A stretch of DNA of 64,000 nt from NCBI GenBank assembly GCA_934095845.1, contig CAKOKS010000004.1:3626-67625 (forward strand), read 5' to 3'. Below the pieces are notes generated by a model. The model was not told the origin of the DNA and did no database searches. It saw only the letters and a program-made list of their open reading frames with translations. The translations under genes and the position numbers were made by a program. Source of the DNA: an uncultured Bacilli bacterium. Its GTDB lineage: Bacteria > Bacillota_I > Bacilli_A > RF39 > UBA660. Shown piece after piece: positions 20,885 to 62,009 of this stretch; the stretch's first letter is position 1, and each line of letters begins with the position of its first letter.

Positions 20885-21700
20885 GTGAAAAGAATAATAT
20901 ATAGAATACTTGCTTATATAATAGATATTTTATTAGTAACTTTACTTACTTTTGGAATAACTTATTTACCTTGTTTTAAAAATACAAACCAAAAAGTAGG
21001 AGCATATTATGTAAGTTTATCTACAAATGAAGTAATGTATAATAATTTAACAAATATATTAGATGATTATTATGAAGATGCTAAAATAAGCGAATCAGAA
21101 ATGGCTGAAATAAATGATAAATATGTAAATTATGCTAAATGTTTTAAAGATGTTAAAGTAGAAGAAGAAGTAACTAATAAAATGAAAAGTGATATTGAAA
21201 CTAATATTAAAAAGACTTATGTAGATACAAAAAATAATGTTAGCTATGAAATTAATAAATGTAATATAATTCAAAGTATAATTGGTATAGTTCTTTATAT
21301 TTTATATTTTGGTGTATTTCAATATTTTATGAAAGGTCAAACTTTAGGTAAGAAATTATTTAGATTAAAAGTTAAAAAATGTGATGATTCTAAAATCTCT
21401 TTATTAAGTTATATCATCCGTACTGTACTTGTATGTGAAATACTTATAACTGGCCTTGATTTGATTTTCTTACTTACAATGAATAAAAGTATGTATATAA
21501 CAAGCAATTATTGGATTTTACAAGTTAAATATATTTATGAAATACTTTTTATTGTAGTAATGATTATAAGAGATGATAATAGAAGTGTTCATGATTTACT
21601 TCTTAATACATGTGTAGTAAGAATGGATAAAGAAGGAAATGAAATAAAAGAACAATTATTTGAAGAAAAAAATGAAAAAAATATTAATAAAACTAATTAG
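20885..21700 (+). CDS. RDD-family membrane protein
   Basis: GTG at 20885 follows AGGAAG. Multi-TM protein with the ..[12 protein letters not shown].. signature. Confidence 0.65.
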
Positions 21701-21878
21701 GTTATATCAAAGTACACCATTAAAATCTCATTCAAGATGTAAATATATTCCAAGTTGTTCAAATTATGCAATAGAAGCTATAAATAAATATGGATCTTTT
21801 AAAGGAAGTTTAAAGGCTATATGGAGAATTATTAGATGTAATCCTTTTTCTAAAGGTGGAATAGATATAGTAAAATAA
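21672..21878 (+). CDS. yidD: Membrane protein insertion efficiency factor YidD
   Basis: ..[33 protein letters not shown].. is the YidD signature. Confidence 0.85.
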
Positions 21879-21900
21879 CGTGTTAAAAACACGTTTTTTG
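21879..21900 (+). terminator. Rho-independent terminator (also the start of a segmental duplication)
   Basis: cgtgtt-aaaa-acacg followed by a T-run. This sequence and the next ~35 bp recur at 57551-57608. Confidence 0.7.
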
Positions 21901-21949
21901 TTTGTATTAAATTATTAGGTTCTAATTTTGTTGATAAATGTCGAGTCTA

Positions 21950-21977
21950 TTGACATAAGTATTTTAGCCTTTATAAT
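21950..21977 (+). promoter_or_regulatory. Near-consensus SigA promoter driving a structured leader / small ORF
   Basis: TTGACA-16 nt-TATAAT. Confidence 0.55.
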
Positions 21978-22076
21978 AACCACTTGAGAAGCAAGAGAAG
22001 ATGCTTATCACATTCCAAAGAGAGGCTAAAATTCAGGAGGGTTTTGGTTAAGTAGTACAAAAAGGAGTGTGATACG

Positions 22077-22154
22077 ATGAAGAAAGATAATCATATAAGA
22101 TTACTTTATTTAATCGTTTTTATATTGTTAGTAATAATATTAAAATTATTATAG
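22077..22154 (+). CDS. 25-codon hydrophobic small ORF (type I toxin-like or leader peptide)
   Basis: AGGAG lies 9 nt before the ATG. The peptide is MKKDNHIRLLYLIVFILLVIILKLL. It sits inside a leader with long-range complementarities and faces a convergent sRNA-like unit. Confidence 0.4.
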   Translation: MKKDNHIRLLYLIVFILLVIILKLL

Positions 22155-22159
22155 CAATT

Positions 22160-22247
22160 AAAAAAGCATCTTTATTCTACTGAATAAGGATGCAACCAAC
22201 ATCTGTGGTAAGCATCAAGCCTCTTAAAGAAACTCTTGCTTCTCACT
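22160..22247 (-). ncRNA. Candidate ~88-nt antisense/sRNA (copy 1)
   Basis: The minus strand carries TTTACA-17 nt-(TGt)TATATT at 22282-22254. A hairpin at 22193-22166 is followed by U6 (22165-22160). The promoter and 5' half are conserved in the duplicated copy at 57627-57709. Confidence 0.4.
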
Positions 22248-22360
22248 AAATTAAATATAACATAATAAAAATAAAATGTAAATATTTACACATAATATGA
22301 TTATTAAATAAAAGAAAAAACTTAAATAGTGTATAATGATAATAGAATGGTGTGTGTATA

Positions 22361-23545
22361 ATGAAAAGGAGAAATCTGTTAATAATTGCAATTTTAATAA
22401 TGTGTATAGGATTTGCAGCAATAAGTACAACATTAGTAATAAATGGAAATACAAAAATTGGAGAAAATAAAGATGATTTTTCAGTAATATTTACTGCAGC
22501 TTCATTAGATGGAACGGATGTATACGCAAATGTAATTGATGATACAAAGAAAATAATTACATTTGAAATAAATGATTTAAAAACATTAAATCAAACAAGT
22601 GTGTTAACTTATGAAATAACAAATAATTCAGTAAACTATGATGCCGAAGTACAAGTAAATTGTAAGGTTAAAGATAATGGTTTAGCAAAATATACAAGCA
22701 TAAAAAATGAACTAGAAGCAAATACCAAAGTAGTAAAAGCAAAAGAAACATTAAATGGAACATTAATAGTAACACTTAACAAAACGGCAACCGAAGAAGT
22801 AAGAGAAGAGTATGTATGTGAATTAACATTTAATGCAGTAGAAAGAAATGAATTAGGACGAGAAATTCCTAATCCAGTATCATTTACAACTGATAGTTGG
22901 GAAACTATTCAAAAAGCTGTTCAAACTGGAAATTCTGGTGTATATAATGTAGGAGACACAAAAGAAGTGGACCTAGGTTCTTTTGGAACACATACCATAA
23001 GAATAGCAAATAAAAGTGAATGTACAACAGAAGCAAGTGAAACAGCATGTGGATTTGTAATAGAATTTGCTGACTGTATAAGTGAAACAATTATGAATTC
23101 TACAAATACTAATGTTGGTAGTTGGAAAGTATCTACAATGAGAACATATTTAAATAATACTATTTATTCATCCTTACCATCTGATTTACAAAACGTAATT
23201 GTTTCAACAAAAGTAATTACAGGACATGGAAGTGCAGAAACAACTAATTCTGAAACACAAGATAAATTATATTTATTATCTGCTAAAGAAGTTTGGGGAA
23301 CTGCTCAAGATGATACAGTAAATATAGAAACAAGACAACTTGATTATTATAAGAATCAAGGAGTAACGGCAACTAGCTATGCAGCAGCAATAAAAAAATA
23401 TAATGGATCAGCTATATTCTGGTTTTTGCGTTCTCCTTATTCTGGAAATGATTCAGCATTTATCCGTGTTGGTTCCTTAGGCAACTGGAGTGGTAGTGGA
23501 GCAGGTGGAAGTAACTATGTATCACCTGCATTTAGAATTGCATAA
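22361..23545 (+). CDS. Secreted protein: shared N-terminal leader/beta module plus DUF6273-like C-terminal domain
   Basis: MKRRNLLIIAILIMCIGFAAISTTLVINGNTKIGEN.. is the family N-terminus. The C-terminal part has ..DKLYLLSAKEV.., ..FWFLRSPYS.. and the terminal ..SPAFRIA. It is a paralogue of 57823..59031. Confidence 0.7.
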   Translation: MKRRNLLIIAILIMCIGFAAISTTLVINGNTKIGENKDDFSVIFTAASLDGTDVYANVIDDTKKIITFEINDLKTLNQTSVLTYEITNNSVNYDAEVQVNCKVKDNGLAKYTSIKNELEANTKVVKAKETLNGTLIVTLNKTATEEVREEYVCELTFNAVERNELGREIPNPVSFTTDSWETIQKAVQTGNSGVYNVGDTKEVDLGSFGTHTIRIANKSECTTEASETACGFVIEFADCISETIMNSTNTNVGSWKVSTMRTYLNNTIYSSLPSDLQNVIVSTKVITGHGSAETTNSETQDKLYLLSAKEVWGTAQDDTVNIETRQLDYYKNQGVTATSYAAAIKKYNGSAIFWFLRSPYSGNDSAFIRVGSLGNWSGSGAGGSNYVSPAFRIA

Positions 23546-36525: not shown

Positions 36526-37931
36526 TGACGAAGAATAAAATAATATTTATTTTAGTCGTTTTTTCTATATTTATAAGTGTTGCATATGCAGCTGAGGTGA
36601 TAAAAGCAAAAGAAATTTCTTTTAGTAATGGAATGTCTGGACTAAAAGCAAATAATGTTCAAGATGCAATAGAAGAATTGTATGACAAAACAATATCTGA
36701 CTCATCATGTAAAAATGTAAGTGCACCAAAACTAAAAGAAGGACTAATTCCAGTAACAATAGAAAATGATGGAACAGTAAAATATGAAGATACTTCTGAA
36801 AATTGGTATAACTATTGTGATAAACGTTGGGCGAATGCAGTAATACTAGAAGATGGTGCAAATTATAAAGTAGGAGATACAATAAGTGAATCTGATATTC
36901 AATCATATTTTGTATGGATACCAAAATATAAATATAAATTATGGAATACCGGAACAGCAAGTGAAGGCGTACATGAAATTGATATCATATTTGATGAAAC
37001 AGATACAGAAGATGTAGAAGGAATATCATGTAAAACTCCAATGATAAGTGGAGAGTCTGGAAATTGTAACAATGGAGAATACATGACACATCCAGCATTT
37101 ATAAGTATGAATACAAATGGATTTTGGGTAGGAAAGTATGAAACAGGATATAAAGGAGCAACAAGTGTCGCAACTGCCCAAGTTAATGGAAGTGATTCAA
37201 GTAAGATAATAGTAAAGCCAAATGTATATAGTTGGAGAAATATAACTGTGTATAATGCGTTTTTAGCATCATATAATTATGATCGTGACTTAGATTCACA
37301 TATGATGAAAAATACCGAATGGGGTGCTGTTGCATATTTATCACATTCTAGATATGGAAAAGAATATGAAATAAATATCAATAATAATTCAAGTTATAAA
37401 ACTGGGTACTCTGCACTGCCTTCGATAAGCCAACAAACGTATCCTGGAACAAGTGGAGATGGAGCAACATACAATTCAGCATACAATACAGATATTGGAT
37501 ATCTAGCAAGTACAAGTGGAAATATAAGTGGTGTTTATGATATGAGTGGTGGAGCATGGGAATACATGTCTTCATATATAACAGGAAAACCTGAATCAAG
37601 TGGATTTACGACAACAACTTTAGCAAATTATAGTAGTAAGTATTTTGATACGTATAATGCATCAACGACAGTTAGTGCTTATCAATATAGAATACTTGGA
37701 GATGCAACTGGAGAAATGGGACCATTTAAACAATATTTAGACGGAGATAATGGATCAAGATTGCATTCCAGTTGGTATGGCGACAGTTCAAGCTTTGTGG
37801 ACTCTTCTATTACTTGGCTTGTTCGAGGTGGGCATTACACTCATGGCGTGCTGTCTGGAATTTTTTCTTTCACTAGGTATACTGGAGGTACTGATACTGG
37901 CGGTGGCTTCCGAATAGTTCTAACTCCATAG
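36525..37931 (+). CDS. Secreted FGE-sulfatase/C-type-lectin-fold protein, paralogue 3
   Basis: Same architecture as paralogue 1, ending ..LVRGGHYTHGVLSG..GGGFRIVLTP. ATGA overlap with the preceding gene. Confidence 0.65.
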   Translation: MTKNKIIFILVVFSIFISVAYAAEVIKAKEISFSNGMSGLKANNVQDAIEELYDKTISDSSCKNVSAPKLKEGLIPVTIENDGTVKYEDTSENWYNYCDKRWANAVILEDGANYKVGDTISESDIQSYFVWIPKYKYKLWNTGTASEGVHEIDIIFDETDTEDVEGISCKTPMISGESGNCNNGEYMTHPAFISMNTNGFWVGKYETGYKGATSVATAQVNGSDSSKIIVKPNVYSWRNITVYNAFLASYNYDRDLDSHMMKNTEWGAVAYLSHSRYGKEYEININNNSSYKTGYSALPSISQQTYPGTSGDGATYNSAYNTDIGYLASTSGNISGVYDMSGGAWEYMSSYITGKPESSGFTTTTLANYSSKYFDTYNASTTVSAYQYRILGDATGEMGPFKQYLDGDNGSRLHSSWYGDSSSFVDSSITWLVRGGHYTHGVLSGIFSFTRYTGGTDTGGGFRIVLTP

Positions 37932-37944
37932 AAAGGATAAACTT

Positions 37945-39351
37945 ATGAAAAATAAATTGTTAATTACGAGTTTAGTTATAAGTACATTATTTTTTGCAGT
38001 TGCCTATGCAGCAGAACTTATAAATGGTAAAGACGTTAGTTTCAGTAATGGTACTTCTGGATTAAAAGCAAATAACGTACAAGATGCAATAACAGAACTT
38101 TATAATAAAAACATAAGTGAAACATCATGCAAAAATGTAAGTGCACCAAAATTAGGGAGTGGGCTTGTTCCAGTAACAATAGAAAATGATGGAACAGTAA
38201 AATATGCAGATACATCAAAGAGTTGGTATAACTATTGTGATAAAATATGGGCGAATGCAGTTATTCTTGAAGATAATACAAGTTATAAAGTAGGAGATAC
38301 GATACAAGAAAGTGACATTCAAAGTTACTTTGTATGGATTCCAAAATATAAATATAAATTGTGGAATGTAGATACACCAAGTAAAGGAATACATGAAATA
38401 GAAATTGTATTTGATGAAAATGATACAAATGATATAGAAGGAGTTTCTTGTAAGACACCAATGGTAAGTGGAGAAAGTGGAAACTGTAATAATGGCGAAT
38501 ATATGACACATCCAGCATTTATAAGTATGAATACAAATGGATTTTGGGTAGGTAAGTATGAAACAGGATATAAAGGAGCAACTAGCACTACAGCAGCTCA
38601 AGTAAATGCAAATGATACTAATAAAATAATAATAAAACCGAATGTATATAGTTGGAGAAATATAACTGTGTATAATGCATTTTTAAATTCATATAACTAT
38701 AAACGTAATTTAGATTCACACATGATGAAAAGTACTGAATGGGGAGCGGCTGTATACTTATCTCATTCTAAGTATGGAAAAGACTATGAATTGAGTAAAA
38801 ATAATAACTCGGCTAGTATTACAGGATATTCAGCATTACCATCAACAAACCAACAAACATATCCAGCTACTTCAGGTAATGGAGATACTTATAATAAACC
38901 ATATAATACAGAAACAGGGTATTTAGCAAGCACGACAGGAAATATAAATGGGATATATGATATGTCAGGTGGTGCATGGGAGTATGTTGCCTCATATATG
39001 AGTGGCAAATTAGGATCAAGTGGGTTTACAACAACGACTATTGCAGATTATGATAGTAAATATTTTGATACATATAATGCATCATCAACTCAAACTACTT
39101 ACCAATATAGAATACTTGGAGATGCAACCGGAGAAATAGGACCATTCAAAAGTTATTTGGATGGAGATAATCAAGCTAGATATCATACAAGTTGGTATGG
39201 TGGACTTTCAATTTTTATTGATTCTTCATGGTCTTGGTTTAGACGAGGTGGAAATAATGGTGATGGAGTTCTTGCAAGTTCATTCTATTTTTGTGGAAAT
39301 TATGGAAGTGCAAGCAATTCAGGTGGTTTCCGTATAGTATTAGCTCCTTAA
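37945..39351 (+). CDS. Secreted FGE-sulfatase/C-type-lectin-fold protein, paralogue 4
   Basis: Same architecture as paralogue 1, ending ..FRRGGNNGDGVLAS..SGGFRIVLAP. Confidence 0.65.
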   Translation: MKNKLLITSLVISTLFFAVAYAAELINGKDVSFSNGTSGLKANNVQDAITELYNKNISETSCKNVSAPKLGSGLVPVTIENDGTVKYADTSKSWYNYCDKIWANAVILEDNTSYKVGDTIQESDIQSYFVWIPKYKYKLWNVDTPSKGIHEIEIVFDENDTNDIEGVSCKTPMVSGESGNCNNGEYMTHPAFISMNTNGFWVGKYETGYKGATSTTAAQVNANDTNKIIIKPNVYSWRNITVYNAFLNSYNYKRNLDSHMMKSTEWGAAVYLSHSKYGKDYELSKNNNSASITGYSALPSTNQQTYPATSGNGDTYNKPYNTETGYLASTTGNINGIYDMSGGAWEYVASYMSGKLGSSGFTTTTIADYDSKYFDTYNASSTQTTYQYRILGDATGEIGPFKSYLDGDNQARYHTSWYGGLSIFIDSSWSWFRRGGNNGDGVLASSFYFCGNYGSASNSGGFRIVLAP

Positions 39352-42250: not shown

Positions 42251-44500
42251 ATGAAAAAGAACTATTTTATATTATTAATATTATTAATAATGGTAGTTGG
42301 ATATGCAGCAACTCAAATGAAAATAGATATAAAAGGAAATACAACATTAAGTGAAAATACAAGTGATTTTAATGTATATTTAGCAAATCTAAAATTAAAT
42401 GGAACAGAAATAGAAGGAATAAATGAAACAAAAGATGGATATGAAATAAATGTACCATCAAAAGGGACACTAGAATATGATGTAATAAATGATTCAACAG
42501 AATATGATGTAGAAGCAACAGTAGAATGTGAAGAAGAAACAGGGGCCAATGAAGTTACAAATTTTGATTATACAGGAGGAGAACAAACATTTGTAGCTCC
42601 AGTAACAGGAGTATATAAACTTGAAACTTGGGGAGCTCAAGGGGGAAGTTCAACGATTGCTCAGGGAGGATATGGATCTTATTCAGTTGGAAATGTGTTA
42701 TTAAACAAAGATGATAAATTATATATTAATATAGGTGGTGCAGGTTTATATAGAAAAGTAAATCAAAGCCCTTATACAATTACTGGAGGCTATAATGGTG
42801 GAGGAACTGCATATGATAGTTCTGAAAAGGAAAATAGATCAAGTGGAGGTGGAGCAACACATATAGCAACCATATCTGGTCAATTATCTTCATTATCTTC
42901 ATCTGTTGGAAAAATTATGATTGTTTCTGGAGGTGGCGGTGGCTCTACGGGAAGCGCTGGAGGAGCAGCTGGTGGAATAAAAGGAGTAATGGGAGCTCCT
43001 ATCTCTGGGTATACCATTGGAACTGGAGGAACTCAAACATCAGGTGGAGTTTGCTCAAATTCAAATAAATATTCATGTACATCAAGTTTAAATGGTTCAT
43101 TTGGAAAGGGTGGAAACTCAATAAGATCAAGTGATAATACAACATATGGTGGTTCCGGTGGAGGTGGTGGCTTCTATGGTGGAGCAGCAGGATATGACAA
43201 CGGAGCAGGTTCTGGAGGCTCAGGCTATATAGGTAATTCTTCTTTAACTGAAAAAACAATGTATTGTTATAATTGCCAAGAATCAAAAGACGAATCTACT
43301 AAAACTATTTCAACGACATGTGTAAATTCAACTCCAACCGAAAATTGTGCTAAGTCCGGTAATGGGTATGCACGTATTACTCAAATAAGTCCAATAGTTT
43401 CTAGTATTCAATTAAAAACAACAACAATTGAAGCTCAAGATAAAGTAAATAAAAGTGTTGAAGTTTCTAATAATGGAATGAAGTGTAGTTTAAAAATAAA
43501 AAAAATATCAAGGGCAGAAAAGAAAGAAAAGTATAGTGGTCCAACAGAATGGACATTTGATTACACTGGTGAAGAACAAACATTTACTGTTCCGGTATCT
43601 GGAACTTATAAATTAGAAACTTGGGGAGCACAGGGAGGAATTAATAGTACTTTAAGCAACAATTCATTATCAAAATTTTCCTATGGTGGATATGCTTCTG
43701 GAATAATAAATTTAAAAAAAGACACTGACTTTTTTATATTTATAGGACAAGCAGGAAATAATTTACGAACAAATATTTTTAATGGTGGAGGAATTGGTGG
43801 CTTAAGTGATCAAAATTCTTTTGGACAATCTGGTGGAGGTGCTACAGATATAAGAATAGATAATAATGAGTGGAATAATTTTTCTTCACTAAAATCTAGA
43901 ATAATGGTTGCTGCTGGAGGCGGCGGTAGTGCAGATGGTGTTTATACAAATGGTGGTCAAGGAAGTTATGCTGGTGGATTAAGTGGATACAATGGAGGAT
44001 ATTATCCAGGCCATAATTATGTAAATCAAGATGGAAAGGGTGCAACGCAAAAAAGTGGTGGAGCTGCTGGTGCAAATATTTTTGGTGCTACTGGTACTGT
44101 TAATAAAGGTGCTTTCGGGTATGGTGGAAGTAGTTATAGTACATCATCAGGAATAGGAAGTGGCGGAGGTGGCTCGGGTTACTATGGCGGAGGAGCTGGA
44201 GGCGGAACTTTAAGTGGTGGAAATGGCCAAGGCGGCGGAGGCGGTTCATCATTTATAAGTGGTCATAATGGCTGTGATGCCATAAGTGAAGAATCAACAG
44301 CAACTAATATAATCCACACTGGTCAATCTGTTCACTATTCTGGATATAAATTTACGGACACGATAATGATAGATGGAACAGGTTGCAAATGGACGAATGA
44401 AAAAACTACGGTATGTGATGGAATGCCATCACACGATGGGACATCTACAATACAAGGAAACACCGGTAATGGTTATGCACGCATAACTTTAATAAAATAA
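42251..44500 (+). CDS. Family N-terminal module fused to two tandem glycine-rich domains
   Basis: ..VVGYAATQMKIDIKGNTTLSENTSDFNVY.. leader/module. Two domains follow, each starting FDYTG(G/E)EQTF..P(V)(T/S)G.YKLETWGAQGG, containing multiple GGGG(S/x)G runs and ending GNGYARIT(Q/L)I. Confidence 0.7.
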   Translation: MKKNYFILLILLIMVVGYAATQMKIDIKGNTTLSENTSDFNVYLANLKLNGTEIEGINETKDGYEINVPSKGTLEYDVINDSTEYDVEATVECEEETGANEVTNFDYTGGEQTFVAPVTGVYKLETWGAQGGSSTIAQGGYGSYSVGNVLLNKDDKLYINIGGAGLYRKVNQSPYTITGGYNGGGTAYDSSEKENRSSGGGATHIATISGQLSSLSSSVGKIMIVSGGGGGSTGSAGGAAGGIKGVMGAPISGYTIGTGGTQTSGGVCSNSNKYSCTSSLNGSFGKGGNSIRSSDNTTYGGSGGGGGFYGGAAGYDNGAGSGGSGYIGNSSLTEKTMYCYNCQESKDESTKTISTTCVNSTPTENCAKSGNGYARITQISPIVSSIQLKTTTIEAQDKVNKSVEVSNNGMKCSLKIKKISRAEKKEKYSGPTEWTFDYTGEEQTFTVPVSGTYKLETWGAQGGINSTLSNNSLSKFSYGGYASGIINLKKDTDFFIFIGQAGNNLRTNIFNGGGIGGLSDQNSFGQSGGGATDIRIDNNEWNNFSSLKSRIMVAAGGGGSADGVYTNGGQGSYAGGLSGYNGGYYPGHNYVNQDGKGATQKSGGAAGANIFGATGTVNKGAFGYGGSSYSTSSGIGSGGGGSGYYGGGAGGGTLSGGNGQGGGGGSSFISGHNGCDAISEESTATNIIHTGQSVHYSGYKFTDTIMIDGTGCKWTNEKTTVCDGMPSHDGTSTIQGNTGNGYARITLIK

Positions 44501-48875: not shown

Positions 48876-50426
48876 ATGAAAAGAAAATCGATTATAGCAG
48901 TTACTATACTATTATTAGCAATAGGATTTGCGGCTATATCGACAACATTGATAATAAACGGAAGTGCAAAAATAGGAGAAAATACAGAAGATTTTTCTGT
49001 TATTTTCACTAAAGCAACATTAGATGGAACAGATGTATATGCAAATGTAATAAGTCAAGATAAAAAAACAATAACGTTTGAAACAAATGATTTAAAAACA
49101 TTAAATCAAACATCGGTACTGAATTATGAAGTAACAAATAATTCAGCAAACTATGATGCAGAAGTGCAAGTAAATTGTAAAACAAAAGAAAATACAACAG
49201 CAAAATATACAAGTATAAAAAATGAACTTGAAAATAATGCAACAGTTATAAAAGCAAAAGAGAAACTAAATGGAACATTAACCGTAACATTAAACAAGGT
49301 AGCTACAGAAGAAGTAAGAGAAGAGTATGTATGTACACTTACACTTAATGCAGTAGAAAGAGATACTATTGGTGTAGAGCCAACTTTATACGACTTAATA
49401 AAATCTAAAGCGGATACAACAACAGTGATAGATTATAAAGTACGTTCAGGAGTAAGTGGAACAAACGGGATATATACAACAACTGCAACTGATGGAAATG
49501 TACCAGTATATTACTATAGAGGAGATGCCGATAAAGTAAATAATAATATAATATTTAATAATATGTGTTGGAAGATAATAAGAACAACTGAAAACAATGG
49601 AGTAAAAATAATATATAACGGAACACCTGCAGATGGAAAGTGTGAAACTCAAACTGGTGATAACACTCAAATTGGGAAAAGTCAATTTAATGGAGAAGGT
49701 GGATATGATAATGCATATGTAGGATATATGTATGGAACAGCAGGAAGTAGTAACTATGCATCAACACATGCAAATACAAATGAATCAACAATAAAAAAAT
49801 ATATAGACAATTGGTATAGTCAAAATTTTGACGGAACGACAACGTCAAAATTAGAAGACACAGTTTTTTGCAATGATAGAAGTACAAAAGCCTATGATGC
49901 AAATACGATTGTATCTACTGGCTTTTCATACTATGGAGCATTAGGATATGGAAAAAATGCAACGTTTTATGGAGCAGCACATAGAGCATCATACAACTCA
50001 ACTAATCCAAATCCAAGTTTAGCTTGCCTAAATGAAAATGATAAATTTACGGTAGAAAGTAAAAATGGAAATGGAAAACTTACTTATCCAGTTGGATTAA
50101 TAACATTAGATGAAGCTGTGCTTGCAGGGTTTAATACATATTATTCCAATGAAAATGATTATAAAGATTACACAAATTACTTATATACAAATAGTGTTTA
50201 TTGGACATTCTCCCCTCTGTCGATGGATACTGATAGTAAAGGAAATGCTGGTATTTATGGTGGTGCTAAAGTTGGTTTTGTCAATATTGGTAGTTATTAT
50301 AGTGGTAGTTATGTGGACTATGGCATTGTGCATTATTCCTATGGTGTCCGTCCTGTAGTTTCACTAGCAAGTAGAACAATTGTAACTGGTGAAGGAACTT
50401 CTGCAAATCCATATGTAGTAGAATAA
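48876..50426 (+). CDS. Family N-terminal module fused to a large C-terminal domain ending ..YWTFSP..YGVRPVVSL..
   Basis: The N-terminal ~165 aa are nearly identical to 22361.. and 57823... The C-terminal ~350 aa are unique (..NNMCWKIIRTTENNGVKIIYNG.., ..YWTFSPLSMD.., ..YSYGVRPVVSLA..). Confidence 0.7.
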   Translation: MKRKSIIAVTILLLAIGFAAISTTLIINGSAKIGENTEDFSVIFTKATLDGTDVYANVISQDKKTITFETNDLKTLNQTSVLNYEVTNNSANYDAEVQVNCKTKENTTAKYTSIKNELENNATVIKAKEKLNGTLTVTLNKVATEEVREEYVCTLTLNAVERDTIGVEPTLYDLIKSKADTTTVIDYKVRSGVSGTNGIYTTTATDGNVPVYYYRGDADKVNNNIIFNNMCWKIIRTTENNGVKIIYNGTPADGKCETQTGDNTQIGKSQFNGEGGYDNAYVGYMYGTAGSSNYASTHANTNESTIKKYIDNWYSQNFDGTTTSKLEDTVFCNDRSTKAYDANTIVSTGFSYYGALGYGKNATFYGAAHRASYNSTNPNPSLACLNENDKFTVESKNGNGKLTYPVGLITLDEAVLAGFNTYYSNENDYKDYTNYLYTNSVYWTFSPLSMDTDSKGNAGIYGGAKVGFVNIGSYYSGSYVDYGIVHYSYGVRPVVSLASRTIVTGEGTSANPYVVE

Positions 50427-57075: not shown

Positions 57076-57550
57076 AAAATTTTATTATTTAGCATATGGA
57101 AGTAATTTGAATTTATATAATCTTTCAAATATGAGTCAAGGAGCAAGAGTTGTAGGCACTTCTAAGCTGAATGGATATCGTTTAGTATTTAAAGGTGGTG
57201 CAGATAAATATGCTTATTTAACTATTGAAAAATGTCCAGAATCAAGTGTACCTTTAGGTATATTTTCTATACCAATGGAAGATATGGAAGCATTAGATAA
57301 ATATGAAGGTTATCCTGAATTATATGATAGGGTTACAATGCCAGTTATAATTGACGGTAAAAAAGAAGAAGCATATATTTATATAATGAAATCAGAATTT
57401 GGTTATCATTTACCTTCAAAAAGTTATATCACTATATGTGAAGAAGGATATGAAGACTTTGGCTTTGACTATAAATTTCTGGATCAAGCTTTAGAAACAA
57501 CTAAAGATAATATATCATCAAGTTTAACAAAAAGATTAACAATAGATTAA
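57032..57550 (+). CDS. Gamma-glutamylcyclotransferase / AIG2-like protein
   Basis: ATG at 57032 follows AAGGAGG. ..YYLAYGSNLN.., ..GYRLVF.., ..ALDKYEGYPELYDR.. and ..AYIYIM.. are GGCT/AIG2 hallmarks. It overlaps the amidoligase 3' end by 44 nt. Confidence 0.7.
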   Translation: MKMKNMFIKNVLQNRKFYYLAYGSNLNLYNLSNMSQGARVVGTSKLNGYRLVFKGGADKYAYLTIEKCPESSVPLGIFSIPMEDMEALDKYEGYPELYDRVTMPVIIDGKKEEAYIYIMKSEFGYHLPSKSYITICEEGYEDFGFDYKFLDQALETTKDNISSSLTKRLTID

Positions 57551-57572
57551 CGTGTTAAAAACACGTTTTTTT
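57551..57572 (+). terminator. Rho-independent terminator (duplicate of 21879-21900)
   Basis: cgtgtt-aaaa-acacg followed by TTTTTTT. Confidence 0.7.
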
Positions 57573-57626
57573 GTTTGTATTAAATTATTAGGTTCTAATT
57601 TTGTTGACAGTAGATAAAAGTAAAAT

Positions 57627-57709
57627 AAAAAAGCACCTTTTCTTTTAAAAAAGGTGCAAACTAGCATTTGTGGTAAGCATCGCGTCCTAAAGAAACTTTG
57701 CTTCTCACT
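57627..57709 (-). ncRNA. Candidate antisense/sRNA (copy 2, no partner small ORF)
   Basis: The minus strand carries TTTACA-17 nt-(TGt)TATATT at 57744-57716. The 5' half is homologous to copy 1. It has its own hairpin gcacctttt/aaaaggtgc (57657-57633) plus U6. Confidence 0.4.
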
Positions 57710-57822
57710 AAATAAAATATAACATAATACATATAAAATGTAAACCTTTACACATAATAGAAATATTAAATAAAATCTACAATTAATATATTGTATAATA
57801 ATGCTAGAATGGTGTGTGTAAA

Positions 57823-59031
57823 ATGAAAAAGAGAGGAATTGTTTTTGCTATATTATTATTAGCAGTAGGATTTGCTGCCGTATCGACAACGTTGATAATA
57901 ACTGGAACAACAAAAATAAGTGAAAATGCTGATGATTTTAGTGCTATCTTCACAAAAGCAACATTAGATGGAATAGATGTGTATGCAAGTGTAATAGATG
58001 ATACAAAGAAAATCATTACATTTGAAACAAGTGATTTAACAACATTAAATCAAACTTCAGTATTAAATTATGAAATAACAAATAATTCGGCAAACTATGA
58101 TGCGGTAGTACAAGTTATGTGTAAAGTAAAAGATGATGCTGAAGCTAAATACACAAGTATCAAAAATGAACTTGAAGGAAATGCAACGAAAGTATTAGCC
58201 AAAGAAGTATTAAATGGAACATTAACAATAACCTTAAATAAAACAGCAACAGAAGAAGTAAAAGAAGAATATGTATGTGAGTTAACATTTAATGCAGTAG
58301 AAAGAAATGAATTAGGTAAAAATATTTCTGATCCAGTATCATTCACAACTGATAATTGGAAAACAATACAAAAAGCAGTTCAAACAGGAAACACAAATTT
58401 ATACAATGTAGGAGATATAAAAGAAGTGGATTTGGGAGATTTAGGAACACACACAGTAAGAATATCAAATATGAGTGCATGTACAACAGAAACAAGTGAA
58501 ACAGCATGTGGATTTGTGGTGGAGTTTTCGGATATAATTACAAAACAATCATTTAATAGCACTGCAACAAATGTAGGAGGATGGAGAGATTCAGAATTAC
58601 GTACATATATAAACAATATTGTATATAATTCATTACCAAGTGACTTACAAAATGTAATAGTTACAACAAAAGTAATATCAGGACATGGAAGTACAAGTGG
58701 AGAAACCAACTTTGAAACACAAGATAAATTATATTTATTGAGTGCTCATGAAGTGTATGAAAATGGAATAAACAGTAATATAACAACAAGCATAAGAGAT
58801 ACTGCATATCATCAAACTAAGCAATTAGACTATTATAAAACTTTAAATGTAAATGATGACAGTTATTCTAATGCTATTAAAGAAAATAATGGCAATAGTA
58901 GTTATTGGTGGCTACGTTCAGCTTATTCTATATTTAATAATTCTTTTGTAAGTGTCCGTTCGGATGGTAATTGGATAAACGAAGTTGCGAATGCTTCTTA
59001 TGGTATCTCACCTGCTTTCCGAATCGCATAA
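57823..59031 (+). CDS. Secreted protein: shared N-terminal module plus DUF6273-like C-terminal domain (paralogue of 22361..23545)
   Basis: MKKRGIVFAILLLAVGFAAVSTTLIITGTTKISEN.., ..DKLYLLSAHEV.., ..YWWLRSAYS.. and the terminal ..SPAFRIA. Confidence 0.7.
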   Translation: MKKRGIVFAILLLAVGFAAVSTTLIITGTTKISENADDFSAIFTKATLDGIDVYASVIDDTKKIITFETSDLTTLNQTSVLNYEITNNSANYDAVVQVMCKVKDDAEAKYTSIKNELEGNATKVLAKEVLNGTLTITLNKTATEEVKEEYVCELTFNAVERNELGKNISDPVSFTTDNWKTIQKAVQTGNTNLYNVGDIKEVDLGDLGTHTVRISNMSACTTETSETACGFVVEFSDIITKQSFNSTATNVGGWRDSELRTYINNIVYNSLPSDLQNVIVTTKVISGHGSTSGETNFETQDKLYLLSAHEVYENGINSNITTSIRDTAYHQTKQLDYYKTLNVNDDSYSNAIKENNGNSSYWWLRSAYSIFNNSFVSVRSDGNWINEVANASYGISPAFRIA

Positions 59032-60236: not shown

Positions 60237-61892
60237 TTATTCTGGAGTTTTTACATCTTCTTCACTTTCTAATACAGCATGTACTACATGTCTTGTTGTA
60301 TGAGAAAAACACGTTGATAAAGTTAATATCTTTGAATTCTCATTTAATTCTACATTAAAGTTATTTATACTTCTATTTTTTAACATATTTAAGAAATCCA
60401 TATATTCTTCATTACTGTCAAATTCAGTTTTTAAATAATCTTCTGTAGCTGGTATTCTATATATTGAAAATATACGCCATTTCATATTTTTAGTTGGAGT
60501 ATTAAAAGTAATAACTTGATTACTTTCTTTTTTATACCAACTACTATTTAAAGCATATTTTAATGTCCCAAACATAATACCTTGTTTAATATTATGTCCA
60601 TATATAATGGTATTTTTATTTAATTCTTTAGCATCATTTCTATAATCCATGAAAATCCAACCCATGGAATTTTTTCTTTTATTAAAGTCACGATTTAAAT
60701 AATATGAATTAGTTGAAGCTTGAACAACTGGATAATTTATCTTTGTATTATTTACACTTAAATAACCAACAGTATCACTGTTTTTCTTTAGTAATTCATC
60801 AAATATTTGAGAATAATTTACATAATATGCACTTGAATAAGAAGAACCTGCTTTTTTAGTAGTAGTTACTTCTGTATCACGATCATCTATAAAATCAACA
60901 TCCGATTCATTATCATCAACTGAATTATTACTACTAGCATCATCAATAATTTTATTAATATCAATTAATTCTTTTTCAATTGTATTATTATCTTTAAACT
61001 GAACGTAGTAGTCTAACATTAAAGTAACTAAACCAACACCAATTATAAATATAATAATTGCTGAAAACATTTTAAAATTAATTTCTTTAAATAAATTATT
61101 CTTTTTATAACTTTCTGAATAATTAAGTTTAAATGTTATATTATTTTCTTCTATATAATCTTTATTAACTTTTTTTAAATAATTTACAGAATTATAAATT
61201 GTTTTTAAATCATTATCTTTTTCTTCTATTTCTATACGAATATTACTTTTCTTATTTGTAACTAACTCATTCATTAGTAGGGTAAGTAATTCATTAGAGT
61301 ATTTTATGATTTTTATATTTTTTAATCTATTATTTAAATTCATAAATGTTTTTACATCTTCATAATCTGTATCATCTGTAATAATAATATATTTTTTATA
61401 ATAAATATCTGAAAAAGAATTAATAGAATTTATTTTCATAAATTTAGATGTTGATTCTAATTTATTTCTAACATTAACAATAACTTTCTTATTAACATCA
61501 AGTCTTTCAATTAAATAAGTTGGCATTTTAAAACAATCAATGCTTTCAATATATTTATTATCTAGAATAAGCATAAATATATCCATATTTATAGATTTAT
61601 CTTCTTTGAAAGTTATATTTTTTATATGTTCCCAAGTATTTATAAGTTTTAAAGAAATAGGAGCAATATCATTGGTAGAAATAACTACATTTTCAATATT
61701 ACTTTTAATTATAGTTACATTTAAAAATGATGACACTAATTCTAAATTTTCAAGTATGTAGGAGTAAGAAAACTTTAATTCTTTTAAATTAATAACGTTG
61801 GTATTATTTAAATCTTTTTTTTCAATAGTTTTTTTTATTTTAGAAATTATAATTGTATTTCCTGATAATTTAAAAGACAAATTAAAGTCCAT
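60237..61892 (-). CDS. srtB: Class B sortase with a ~280-aa N-terminal cytoplasmic extension
   Basis: Start at the ATG 6 nt after AAGGAGG. The C-terminal ~210 aa carry ..INYPVVQ.., ..IFMDYRN.., ..IIYGHN.. and ..ILTLSTC..R.VVHAVL, the SrtB pattern. A single TM lies at ~aa 285-305. Confidence 0.7.
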   Translation of the reverse strand: MDFNLSFKLSGNTIIISKIKKTIEKKDLNNTNVINLKELKFSYSYILENLELVSSFLNVTIIKSNIENVVISTNDIAPISLKLINTWEHIKNITFKEDKSINMDIFMLILDNKYIESIDCFKMPTYLIERLDVNKKVIVNVRNKLESTSKFMKINSINSFSDIYYKKYIIITDDTDYEDVKTFMNLNNRLKNIKIIKYSNELLTLLMNELVTNKKSNIRIEIEEKDNDLKTIYNSVNYLKKVNKDYIEENNITFKLNYSESYKKNNLFKEINFKMFSAIIIFIIGVGLVTLMLDYYVQFKDNNTIEKELIDINKIIDDASSNNSVDDNESDVDFIDDRDTEVTTTKKAGSSYSSAYYVNYSQIFDELLKKNSDTVGYLSVNNTKINYPVVQASTNSYYLNRDFNKRKNSMGWIFMDYRNDAKELNKNTIIYGHNIKQGIMFGTLKYALNSSWYKKESNQVITFNTPTKNMKWRIFSIYRIPATEDYLKTEFDSNEEYMDFLNMLKNRSINNFNVELNENSKILTLSTCFSHTTRHVVHAVLESEEDVKTPE

Positions 61893-62009
61893 AAACATCC
61901 TCCTTATTCTCAATAATTATTTTATCATAAAATAATTATTAATTCTATATTGATTATTTATAAATTTAATAATATACTAAGTTTAGGTGTTTTAGATTTG
62001 GGTGGTTTT

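Follow-up and report, generated by a model that had tools for sequence, protein, structure and literature searches.

In hok/sok, a type I toxin-antitoxin (TA) pair of Enterobacteria, the full-length toxin mRNA is locked by a long-distance interaction between its 5' and 3' ends. In the par locus of Enterococcus faecalis (fst RNA I/RNA II), the DNA repeats are direct, which gives both RNAs 5' ends that can pair with each other. A 5'-3' long-distance interaction also locks the full-length toxin mRNA of aapA1/IsoA1 in Helicobacter pylori (PMC5416894, PMC6733600), and Clostridia carry type I pairs that converge and overlap at the 3' end, with toxins of ~50 amino acids (aa) that lack annotation (PMC6563280). 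Here we describe a locus in a 64,000-nucleotide (nt) stretch of chromosomal DNA, hereafter the window, from an uncultured gut Bacilli lineage (guanine-plus-cytosine (GC) content ~25%; GenBank assembly GCA_934095845.1, contig CAKOKS010000004.1). The locus occupies a 480-nt spacer between yidD and a gene for a secreted protein, and it probably represents a complete copy from a hitherto undescribed family of multi-copy, type I TA-like modules of uncultured gut Bacilli with very low GC content. This classification is drawn from sequence architecture, conservation, the constraint on a small open reading frame (ORF) and compensatory base changes. To our knowledge, such systems have so far not been reported from this clade of gut Bacilli, whose members are uncultured, have reduced genomes and are common in human microbiomes, including those of the Hadza.

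We compared the locus with the convergent pairs txpA/RatA, bsrG/SR4, bsrE/SR5 and yonT/SR6 of Bacillus subtilis and with the CD2517.1/RCd8-type pairs of Clostridioides difficile (PMC6563280, PMC5848175). Judging from the sequence, these convergent, 3'-overlapping type I pairs are the closest in layout. In both cases, a small hydrophobic peptide gene converges with a gene for a small RNA (sRNA) of ~100 nt, the whole sRNA can pair with the 3' part of the mRNA for the toxin (here a putative one), an arrangement suggestive of duplex-directed degradation, the Shine-Dalgarno (SD) sequence of that mRNA is partly sequestered, and the toxins are unannotated and lack cross-family homology. The module described here differs in that it encodes a shorter peptide (25-35 aa) of unrelated sequence, its sRNA belongs to no Rfam family, its mRNA has no terminator of its own, its sRNA covers the 3' arm of a fold-back and not just the 3' untranslated region (UTR), and its host is an uncultured gut Bacilli bacterium. 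No profile similarity to known type I families (Fst/Ldr, TxpA/BsrG, Hok, Ibs, TisB, SprA etc.) or to their antitoxin RNAs was found in Pfam, NCBIfam and Rfam.

Architecture of the locus

A sequence-only reading of the window had proposed a strong plus-strand promoter, three leader blocks (A, B, and C) with complements (A', B', and C') about 200 nt downstream in a non-nested order, an SD sequence with a 25-codon hydrophobic ORF, a hairpin followed by U6 on the minus strand, and a minus-strand promoter. All of these were located where that reading had placed them (Table 1). Blocks A and A' form a 13-nt inverted repeat with 100% complementarity, B and B' a 13-nt inverted repeat with 92%, and C and C' can pair over 7-8 base pairs (bp). 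The folding that the same reading had recommended gave a result far beyond chance; the plus-strand RNA 21983-22250 (268 nt) has a minimum free energy of -85.4 kcal/mol compared with -46.3 ± 4.4 for 200 dinucleotide shuffles (z = -8.85).

The order of the blocks differs between the arms (A-B-C vs. B'-C'-A'). B:B' and C:C' cannot be nested, and they would form either a long-range pseudoknot or alternative conformers. One feature goes beyond the sequence-only reading: the leader contains an anti-SD that can form an 11-bp helix with the SD region. The SD sequence is occluded in the thermodynamic models irrespective of whether the 3' arm is free, blocked, or absent (unpaired probability ≤0.03). The SD of the putative toxin mRNA is thus predicted to be hidden, as judged from structure prediction and from the co-variation described below.

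The small ORF has its own ribosome-binding site, a GGAG located 9 nt 5' of the ATG, and encodes a hydrophobic, membrane-type peptide well within the size range (<~60 aa) of such products. In the predicted sRNA, a variable G/U-rich linker joins a 5' hairpin (A, an inner stem with C, and B) to an intrinsic terminator, and the fold of this RNA is also more stable than expected (z = -4.05). The sRNA is perfectly complementary over 88 nt to the plus-strand RNA, covering the 3' arm and the terminator region beside the stop codon of the ORF.

Upstream of the plus-strand promoter lies a box of ~30 nt with a repeated TGTCGA in its family consensus, and it may be an operator, a regulator-binding site or an UP (upstream promoter) element. 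At the other end, a 14-nt palindrome (TGTAAATATTTACA) at 22277-22290 gives TTTACA on both strands, so that it could provide back-to-back -35 boxes for the sRNA promoter and for a plus-strand promoter. Only its right half (TATTTACACATAATA) is common to the closest species (contig L002), which marks the right boundary of the module there.

Table 1. Positions in the window of the module, its neighbours, and the second sRNA copy.
Feature	Positions	Strand	Remarks
yidD	21672-21878		Upstream neighbour of the module; terminator 21877-95
Upstream box	21915-21945	+	TTAGGTTCTAATTTTGTTGATAAATGTCGAG; family consensus TTAGGTTCTAATTTTGTCGACATTTGTCGAG; kept in most type-1 modules (alignment)
Peptide-mRNA promoter	21950-21977	+	TTGACA-16-TATAAT; 12/12 consensus match
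Structured 5' leader	21984-22076	+	Blocks A, B, C, anti-SD, hairpin H2, SD region
Block A	21985-97	+	
Block B	22000-12	+	
Anti-SD	22006-16	+	Overlaps block B
Block C	22021-27	+	AGAGGCT
Local hairpin H2	22024-49	+	
SD region	22064-74	+	GGAG at 22064-67
25-codon ORF	22077-22154	+	ATG 22077, TAG 22154; peptide MKKDNHIRLLYLIVFILLVIILKLL; putative type I toxin or small membrane peptide
Predicted ~88-nt antisense sRNA	22160-22247	-	Putative antitoxin
Terminator hairpin, 12 bp	22166-93	-	Stem 22193-22166, U-tract 22165-22160; preceded by A6 on the plus strand
Fold-back 3' arm	22204-22245	+	B', C', A' on the plus-strand RNA
Block B'	22204-16	+	
Block C'	22218-25	+	AGCCTCT at 22219-25
Block A'	22233-45	+	
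sRNA promoter	22254-22282	-	TTTACA-17-TGtTATATT
Secreted-protein gene	22361-23545		C-terminal DUF6273 domain; downstream neighbour of the module
Orphan sRNA copy	57627-57709	-	Promoter 57716-57744 (-); upstream of gene 57823-59031

Homologous modules

Metagenome contigs were scanned with the pattern TGAGAAGCAA-N3-30-GATGCTTAYCAC. The scan yielded 57 loci with 64 matches, about six loci being evident chance hits in GC-rich or marine DNA; the remaining loci were human-gut contigs of uniform architecture. About 45 modules share the layout of promoter, leader, hydrophobic ORF, and convergent ~85-nt sRNA, with 3 to about nine copies per assembly. The matches with a long gap are sRNA genes. After an extended -10 they have a conserved 5' hairpin whose inner stem varies and a G/U-rich linker, which is likewise variable, and they close with a terminator of one of two types and T6. 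Those with a short gap are mRNA 5' ends, located after TTGACA-N16/17-TATAAT or after a second promoter type, and a convergent sRNA was present in every case where the sequence reaches far enough. In the alignment of these modules, the TTGACA…TATAAT pair is equally distant from block A, and essentially every locus of the family has the extended -10 of the sRNA promoter (TGTTATATT) at one constant spacing from the start of the sRNA.

A covariance model (R1) was built from an alignment of 36 distinct sRNA homologues. R1 gave the sRNA of the window 99 bits and recovered all 36 sRNAs as well as the partners of every mRNA-type match, including three that lie outside the search pattern. At the level of sequence, an antisense RNA gene with promoter, 5' hairpin, and terminator is present in at least 50 loci.

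The search for further copies that had been suggested from the sequence was also productive within the window. The segment 57623-57759 shows 84% nucleotide identity to 22156-22297. The repeat includes the hairpin, the three complementary blocks (B', C', and A'), and the minus-strand promoter, and its sRNA scores 86 bits with R1. Here 19 nt replace the 224 nt equivalent to 21936-22159, and because the promoter, blocks A, B, and C, and the ORF are deleted, this second copy is an orphan sRNA unit; it keeps the upstream box at 57589-57607. The terminator stems of the orphan and the complete copy show compensatory differences, and both sRNAs are predicted to fold alike, as a 5' hairpin, a linker, and a terminator. 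When the plus-strand 5' end was aligned with the two minus-strand units, A and B were equally placed relative to the promoter in all three, which identifies the inverted repeats as the 5' ends of two convergent genes and as part of their predicted transcripts.

The two copies are accompanied by another duplication. An identical terminator hairpin (AACGTGTTAAAAACACGTT) with ~40 nt of following sequence is present at 21877-21935 and 57549-57607, after the stop codons of unrelated genes (yidD and a GGACT/AIG2-like gene). Since the repeated terminator directly follows both stop codons, the duplicated unit begins right at the stop codon, and it is at this repeat that short Logan contigs are interrupted.

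No homologue of the element was found by blastn, nhmmer, or the covariance model in 80 related species, of which the neighbourhood of the TmcAL gene was sampled, and in L002 the syntenic spacer between yidD and the DUF6273 gene is only 209 nt and lacks the module. BLASTN against plasmid and phage collections gave no match to the element.

Constraint on the peptide and co-variation of the RNA

About 39 modules keep an SD sequence and a hydrophobic ORF of 25-35 codons opposite the sRNA, with the stop codon within a few nucleotides of the sRNA terminator; some of these ORFs start with TTG or GTG. The peptides fall into five divergent subfamilies, in each of which a short basic N-terminus precedes a single hydrophobic helix of ~20 aa: the type of the window (F1), MKKDN[H/Q]IRLLYLIVFILL[V/A/I]IILKLL(WQ/WP); MFKKSFKQDVLNVIFITIIFILLIIILKLL(WQ); MFKHQFKIELLVTSLIIIIFILLYLLC[K/R]KGI; MSKKDFLIFGLYILIIMLLYIIYKLIFILI; and MNNKQYLVAKLFNLIIIQLFIIIALFIVIIVIICK. 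Among intact F1 copies, seven variant codons are synonymous (K2, H6, R8, L9, Y11, L18, and I21), and the about three residue-changing variants are conservative (H6Q, V19A/I). Between F1 and F2, the frame is kept because a 2-nt shift of the start codon offsets a 17-nt indel. Judging from subfamily conservation, the maintained frame, and the mostly synonymous changes in F1, the ORF is a constrained coding sequence. MAFFT gave a hint that the ORF might be a relic of a surface-protein signal peptide, and this idea was rejected, as the ORF has its own conserved family.

Outside the window, decayed copies were also found; the ORF is frameshifted or has lost its start in six modules (L101, L108, L110, L127, L129, and L139). 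Live and decaying copies side by side are typical of multi-copy type I loci. None of the peptides occurs in a collection of 15 billion proteins (exact look-up), and for this reason they have remained unannotated.

RNA pairing was counted in an alignment of 34 full-length plus-strand units. The anti-SD:SD helix is paired at 92%, with UA replaced by AU in six sequences and by CG in two, and the terminator stem is paired at 98% with two compensatory pairs. A:A' and B:B' are paired at 86% and 97%, respectively. For C:C', the count from the MAFFT alignment (58% paired) is unreliable due to misregister, and this pairing was scored per module by duplex folding; the complementarity is kept in at least four versions (GAGGCU/AGCCUC, UAGGACGU/GCGUCCUA, AGAGACU/AGUCUCU, and GGGACU/AGUCCC). 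Because the block order differs between the arms, this co-variation is not explained by a simple inverted duplication, and it argues that the plus-strand transcript runs through the sRNA gene and folds back.

Thus, the type I TA-like layout that the sequence-only reading had put forward as its first interpretation stood up well to comparison, with ~45 homologues, compensatory changes in anti-SD:SD, C:C', and the terminator stem, and orphan and decayed copies; its second interpretation, a DNA switch like that of cwpV, did not (see below).

Possible mechanism

We propose that the strong, sigma-A-type promoter would drive synthesis of an mRNA whose 25-aa product has a basic N-terminus and only one hydrophobic helix. 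The anti-SD of the leader would hold the SD sequence in the 11-bp helix, and A, B, and C would fold back onto their complements ~200 nt downstream, giving a compact and translationally inert form. The convergent sRNA, running from 22247 to 22160, would pair with the 3' arm to form a long duplex, presumably a substrate of RNase III, and would thereby displace the 5' leader of the mRNA itself. Since the SD sequence is occluded in all modelled states, the sRNA is more likely to act by duplex-directed decay than by masking the SD. This scheme presumes that both RNAs are made, that the plus-strand transcript reaches A', that the peptide would be toxic and that the sRNA would neutralise it.

As in hok/sok and aapA1/IsoA1, the two ends of the mRNA would pair, an upstream anti-SD would sequester the SD sequence, and the primary transcript is predicted to be inert. 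There, the antitoxin has its target in the 5' region of the 3'-processed mRNA, whereas the sRNA of the module lies opposite the 3' arm; moreover, the fold-back of the module is tripartite, with B:B' and C:C' not nesting. As in par, two RNAs converge on one hairpin, short repeated blocks stand at both 5' ends, and a 5' structure would limit translation. Unlike par, however, the repeats of the module are inverted, so its RNAs have similar 5' ends and complementarity arises from read-through; the hairpin terminates the minus strand only, and the peptide has neither an Fst motif nor a charged C-terminal tail.

Because it is encoded exactly opposite the 3' arm, the sRNA is a mimic of the mRNA leader. 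We suggest tentatively, and with more doubt than confidence, that the module may use a mechanism new to type I systems, namely a tripartite 5'-3' lock in which two helices cross and a leader-mimic sRNA that acts by strand displacement; the freed leader would pair again with the SD sequence while the RNase III substrate forms. Action of the sRNA in trans was also considered and dropped, as its pairing to the 5' ends of surface-protein genes was not above that of shuffled sequences (z -1.4 to +0.5) and its pairing to the 5' UTR and SD region of the putative toxin was no better than that of shuffled sequences.

With the ~45 loci, five peptide subfamilies, sRNA covariance model, natural compensatory variants, and orphan and decayed copies, the logic of fold-back and antisense pairing can be tested directly. 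The family also points to genes that current annotation misses, its peptides being absent from the 15-billion-protein collection.

Alternative explanations

Several points weigh against the classification as a type I TA-like module. The five peptide types have no match in Pfam or NCBIfam at E < 0.001 and hence no similarity to a known toxin. The constancy of A and B says little, because both blocks were fixed by the search pattern; changes in them occur only in the three sRNA copies found by the model, and none of these is compensatory. The compensatory events trace to a few subfamily splits and not to many independent changes. There is no intrinsic terminator on the plus strand between the ORF and the downstream gene, so that the 3' end of the mRNA is undefined, and the fold-back needs read-through across the sRNA gene. 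Lastly, 22 of 38 distinct modules are followed, after 30-90 nt, by a surface-protein paralogue in the same orientation, an association that could mean a cis-regulatory rather than an addiction or toxin role.

This last point leads to the rival that survives best, although we regard it as unlikely. Here the locus would be a cis-regulatory leader and antisense unit: the strong promoter would read into the DUF6273-type gene, the ORF would be a harmless leader or small membrane peptide, and the divergent or antisense sRNA would tune the read-through by transcriptional interference or duplex-directed cleavage. Besides the position of the 22 modules, the missing plus-strand terminator between module and gene speaks for it, as does the higher conservation of the module compared with the adjacent proteins; the two window copies show 84% nucleotide identity, and the surface proteins downstream of them share 66% amino-acid identity. 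However, other modules precede unrelated genes (XseA-like, RhuM-like, Y-family polymerase, and PriA-like), a convergent ClpP-like gene faces the module in three contigs (L103, L118, and L132), and the neighbour in L144 is likewise unrelated or convergent, and thus the unit appears autonomous. Furthermore, the downstream genes have conserved promoters of their own (of the type TTGAAAATC-G8-TATTAT, or TGTATAAT at 22330-37), the gene beside the orphan copy is intact although the strong promoter is missing there, and the sRNA has no significant complementarity in trans to the 5' ends of surface-protein genes. On sequence grounds, these observations favour a unit that is autonomous and has for the most part been duplicated along with the surface-protein gene family. 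It may also be that the modules were recruited to stabilise or insulate this expanding gene family, whose members they usually precede, and this recurrent link may bear on the upkeep or expression of variable loci.

It is improbable that the element is a selfish or neutral repeat, such as a miniature inverted-repeat transposable element (MITE) or an inverted duplication of the sRNA gene, in which the fold would be a by-product of the inverted repeats and the ORF would be fortuitous in AT-rich DNA. The element is indeed multi-copy, varies in presence or absence between species, has a 13-bp repeat resembling terminal inverted repeats, and carries leader blocks A and B that look like a truncated 5' hairpin of the sRNA. 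Nevertheless, no target-site duplication is evident at its ends, both promoters and the terminator are conserved, and the reading frame, SD sequence, start codon, and hydrophobicity of the ORF are kept across five subfamilies and through indels. The different block order of the arms also means that an inverted duplication leaves the co-variation of C:C' unexplained.

In the cwpV switch of C. difficile, a segment that contains a terminator and is flanked by inverted repeats separates a promoter from a surface-protein gene. The sequence-only reading had suggested a similar phase switch here, with A/A' as the repeats around a ~235-bp segment whose inversion would put the terminator in the sense orientation before the surface-protein gene; in such a switch, A/A' or else B/B' would be the recombination sites. 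The perfect 13-bp inverted repeat around a segment with a unidirectional terminator, and the position of the locus between a promoter and a member of a surface-protein multigene family, fit this idea, but it is very improbable, as A and B form the conserved 5' ends of two convergent transcription units and keep a constant spacing to the promoter of each unit, the block orders A-B-C and A-C-B are unlike those of a recombinase site pair, all 64 pattern matches keep the parental junctions (short-gap A-B after the mRNA promoter, long-gap A-C-B after the sRNA promoter), and two independent full-length assemblies of this species (L001 and L084) agree with the window at 100% identity throughout the region. 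No inverted orientation or recombinant junction was seen in any assembly or module, all of them consensus assemblies from which a minority orientation could escape, and no recombinase is among the annotated neighbours from 18.0 to 26.6 kb. One Logan contig (L083, run ERR7738959) ends at 22015, 3 nt past block B, which is uninterpretable alone, as low coverage or a graph branch would have the same effect.

Genomic setting

Genes identical to those of the window are present in human-gut assemblies (ENA ERZ27287281; Hadza samples), and the nearest genomes are labelled "uncultured Bacilli bacterium". Exact-protein look-ups for strain variants returned the identical sequence only, and two Logan contigs are interrupted, either at the duplicated terminator or at 22015. 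No Rfam family matched in the whole window at the gathering threshold, nor was there a relevant match in 20.5-23.5 kb at E ≤ 1; 6S RNA, signal recognition particle RNA, RNase P, the raiA motif, and retron noncoding RNA were dropped as candidates for lack of an Rfam match. A scan for transfer RNA and transfer-messenger RNA genes found none.

The DUF6273 gene downstream of the module is one of a secreted or surface multigene family in the window (22361-23545, 57823-59031, 48876-50426, 35923-36525, and 42251-44500). Its members have in common the N-terminal ~170 aa, with a signal peptide of the form MKKK…IGFAA(I/V)STTL(I/V)ING, and their C-terminal domains vary (DUF6273, ALK/LTK glycine-rich, and others). 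A sortase-domain gene is located nearby at 60237-61913 (-). In L001 (ERZ27287281), a G-to-T nonsense change (GAA to TAA) at the equivalent of window position 22613 interrupts the DUF6273 gene, which is therefore called as two fragments.

Surface-protein genes of related genomes carry a conserved promoter, TTGA(A/C)AATC-GGGGGGGG-TATTATAAAAT, with a G8 tract in the spacer (L002:~9790 (-), L090, L098, L104, L122, L128, L133, and L138). The tract was considered as a phase-variation signal and set aside, since it shows no length polymorphism, being 8 nt in complete instances except L136, where it is interrupted.

Four tandem ORFs of ~468-470 aa, which have no Pfam match, start at 33075, 34494, 36525, and 37945 (within 33075-39351), and a 200-aa member of the surface-protein N-domain family is interleaved with them.

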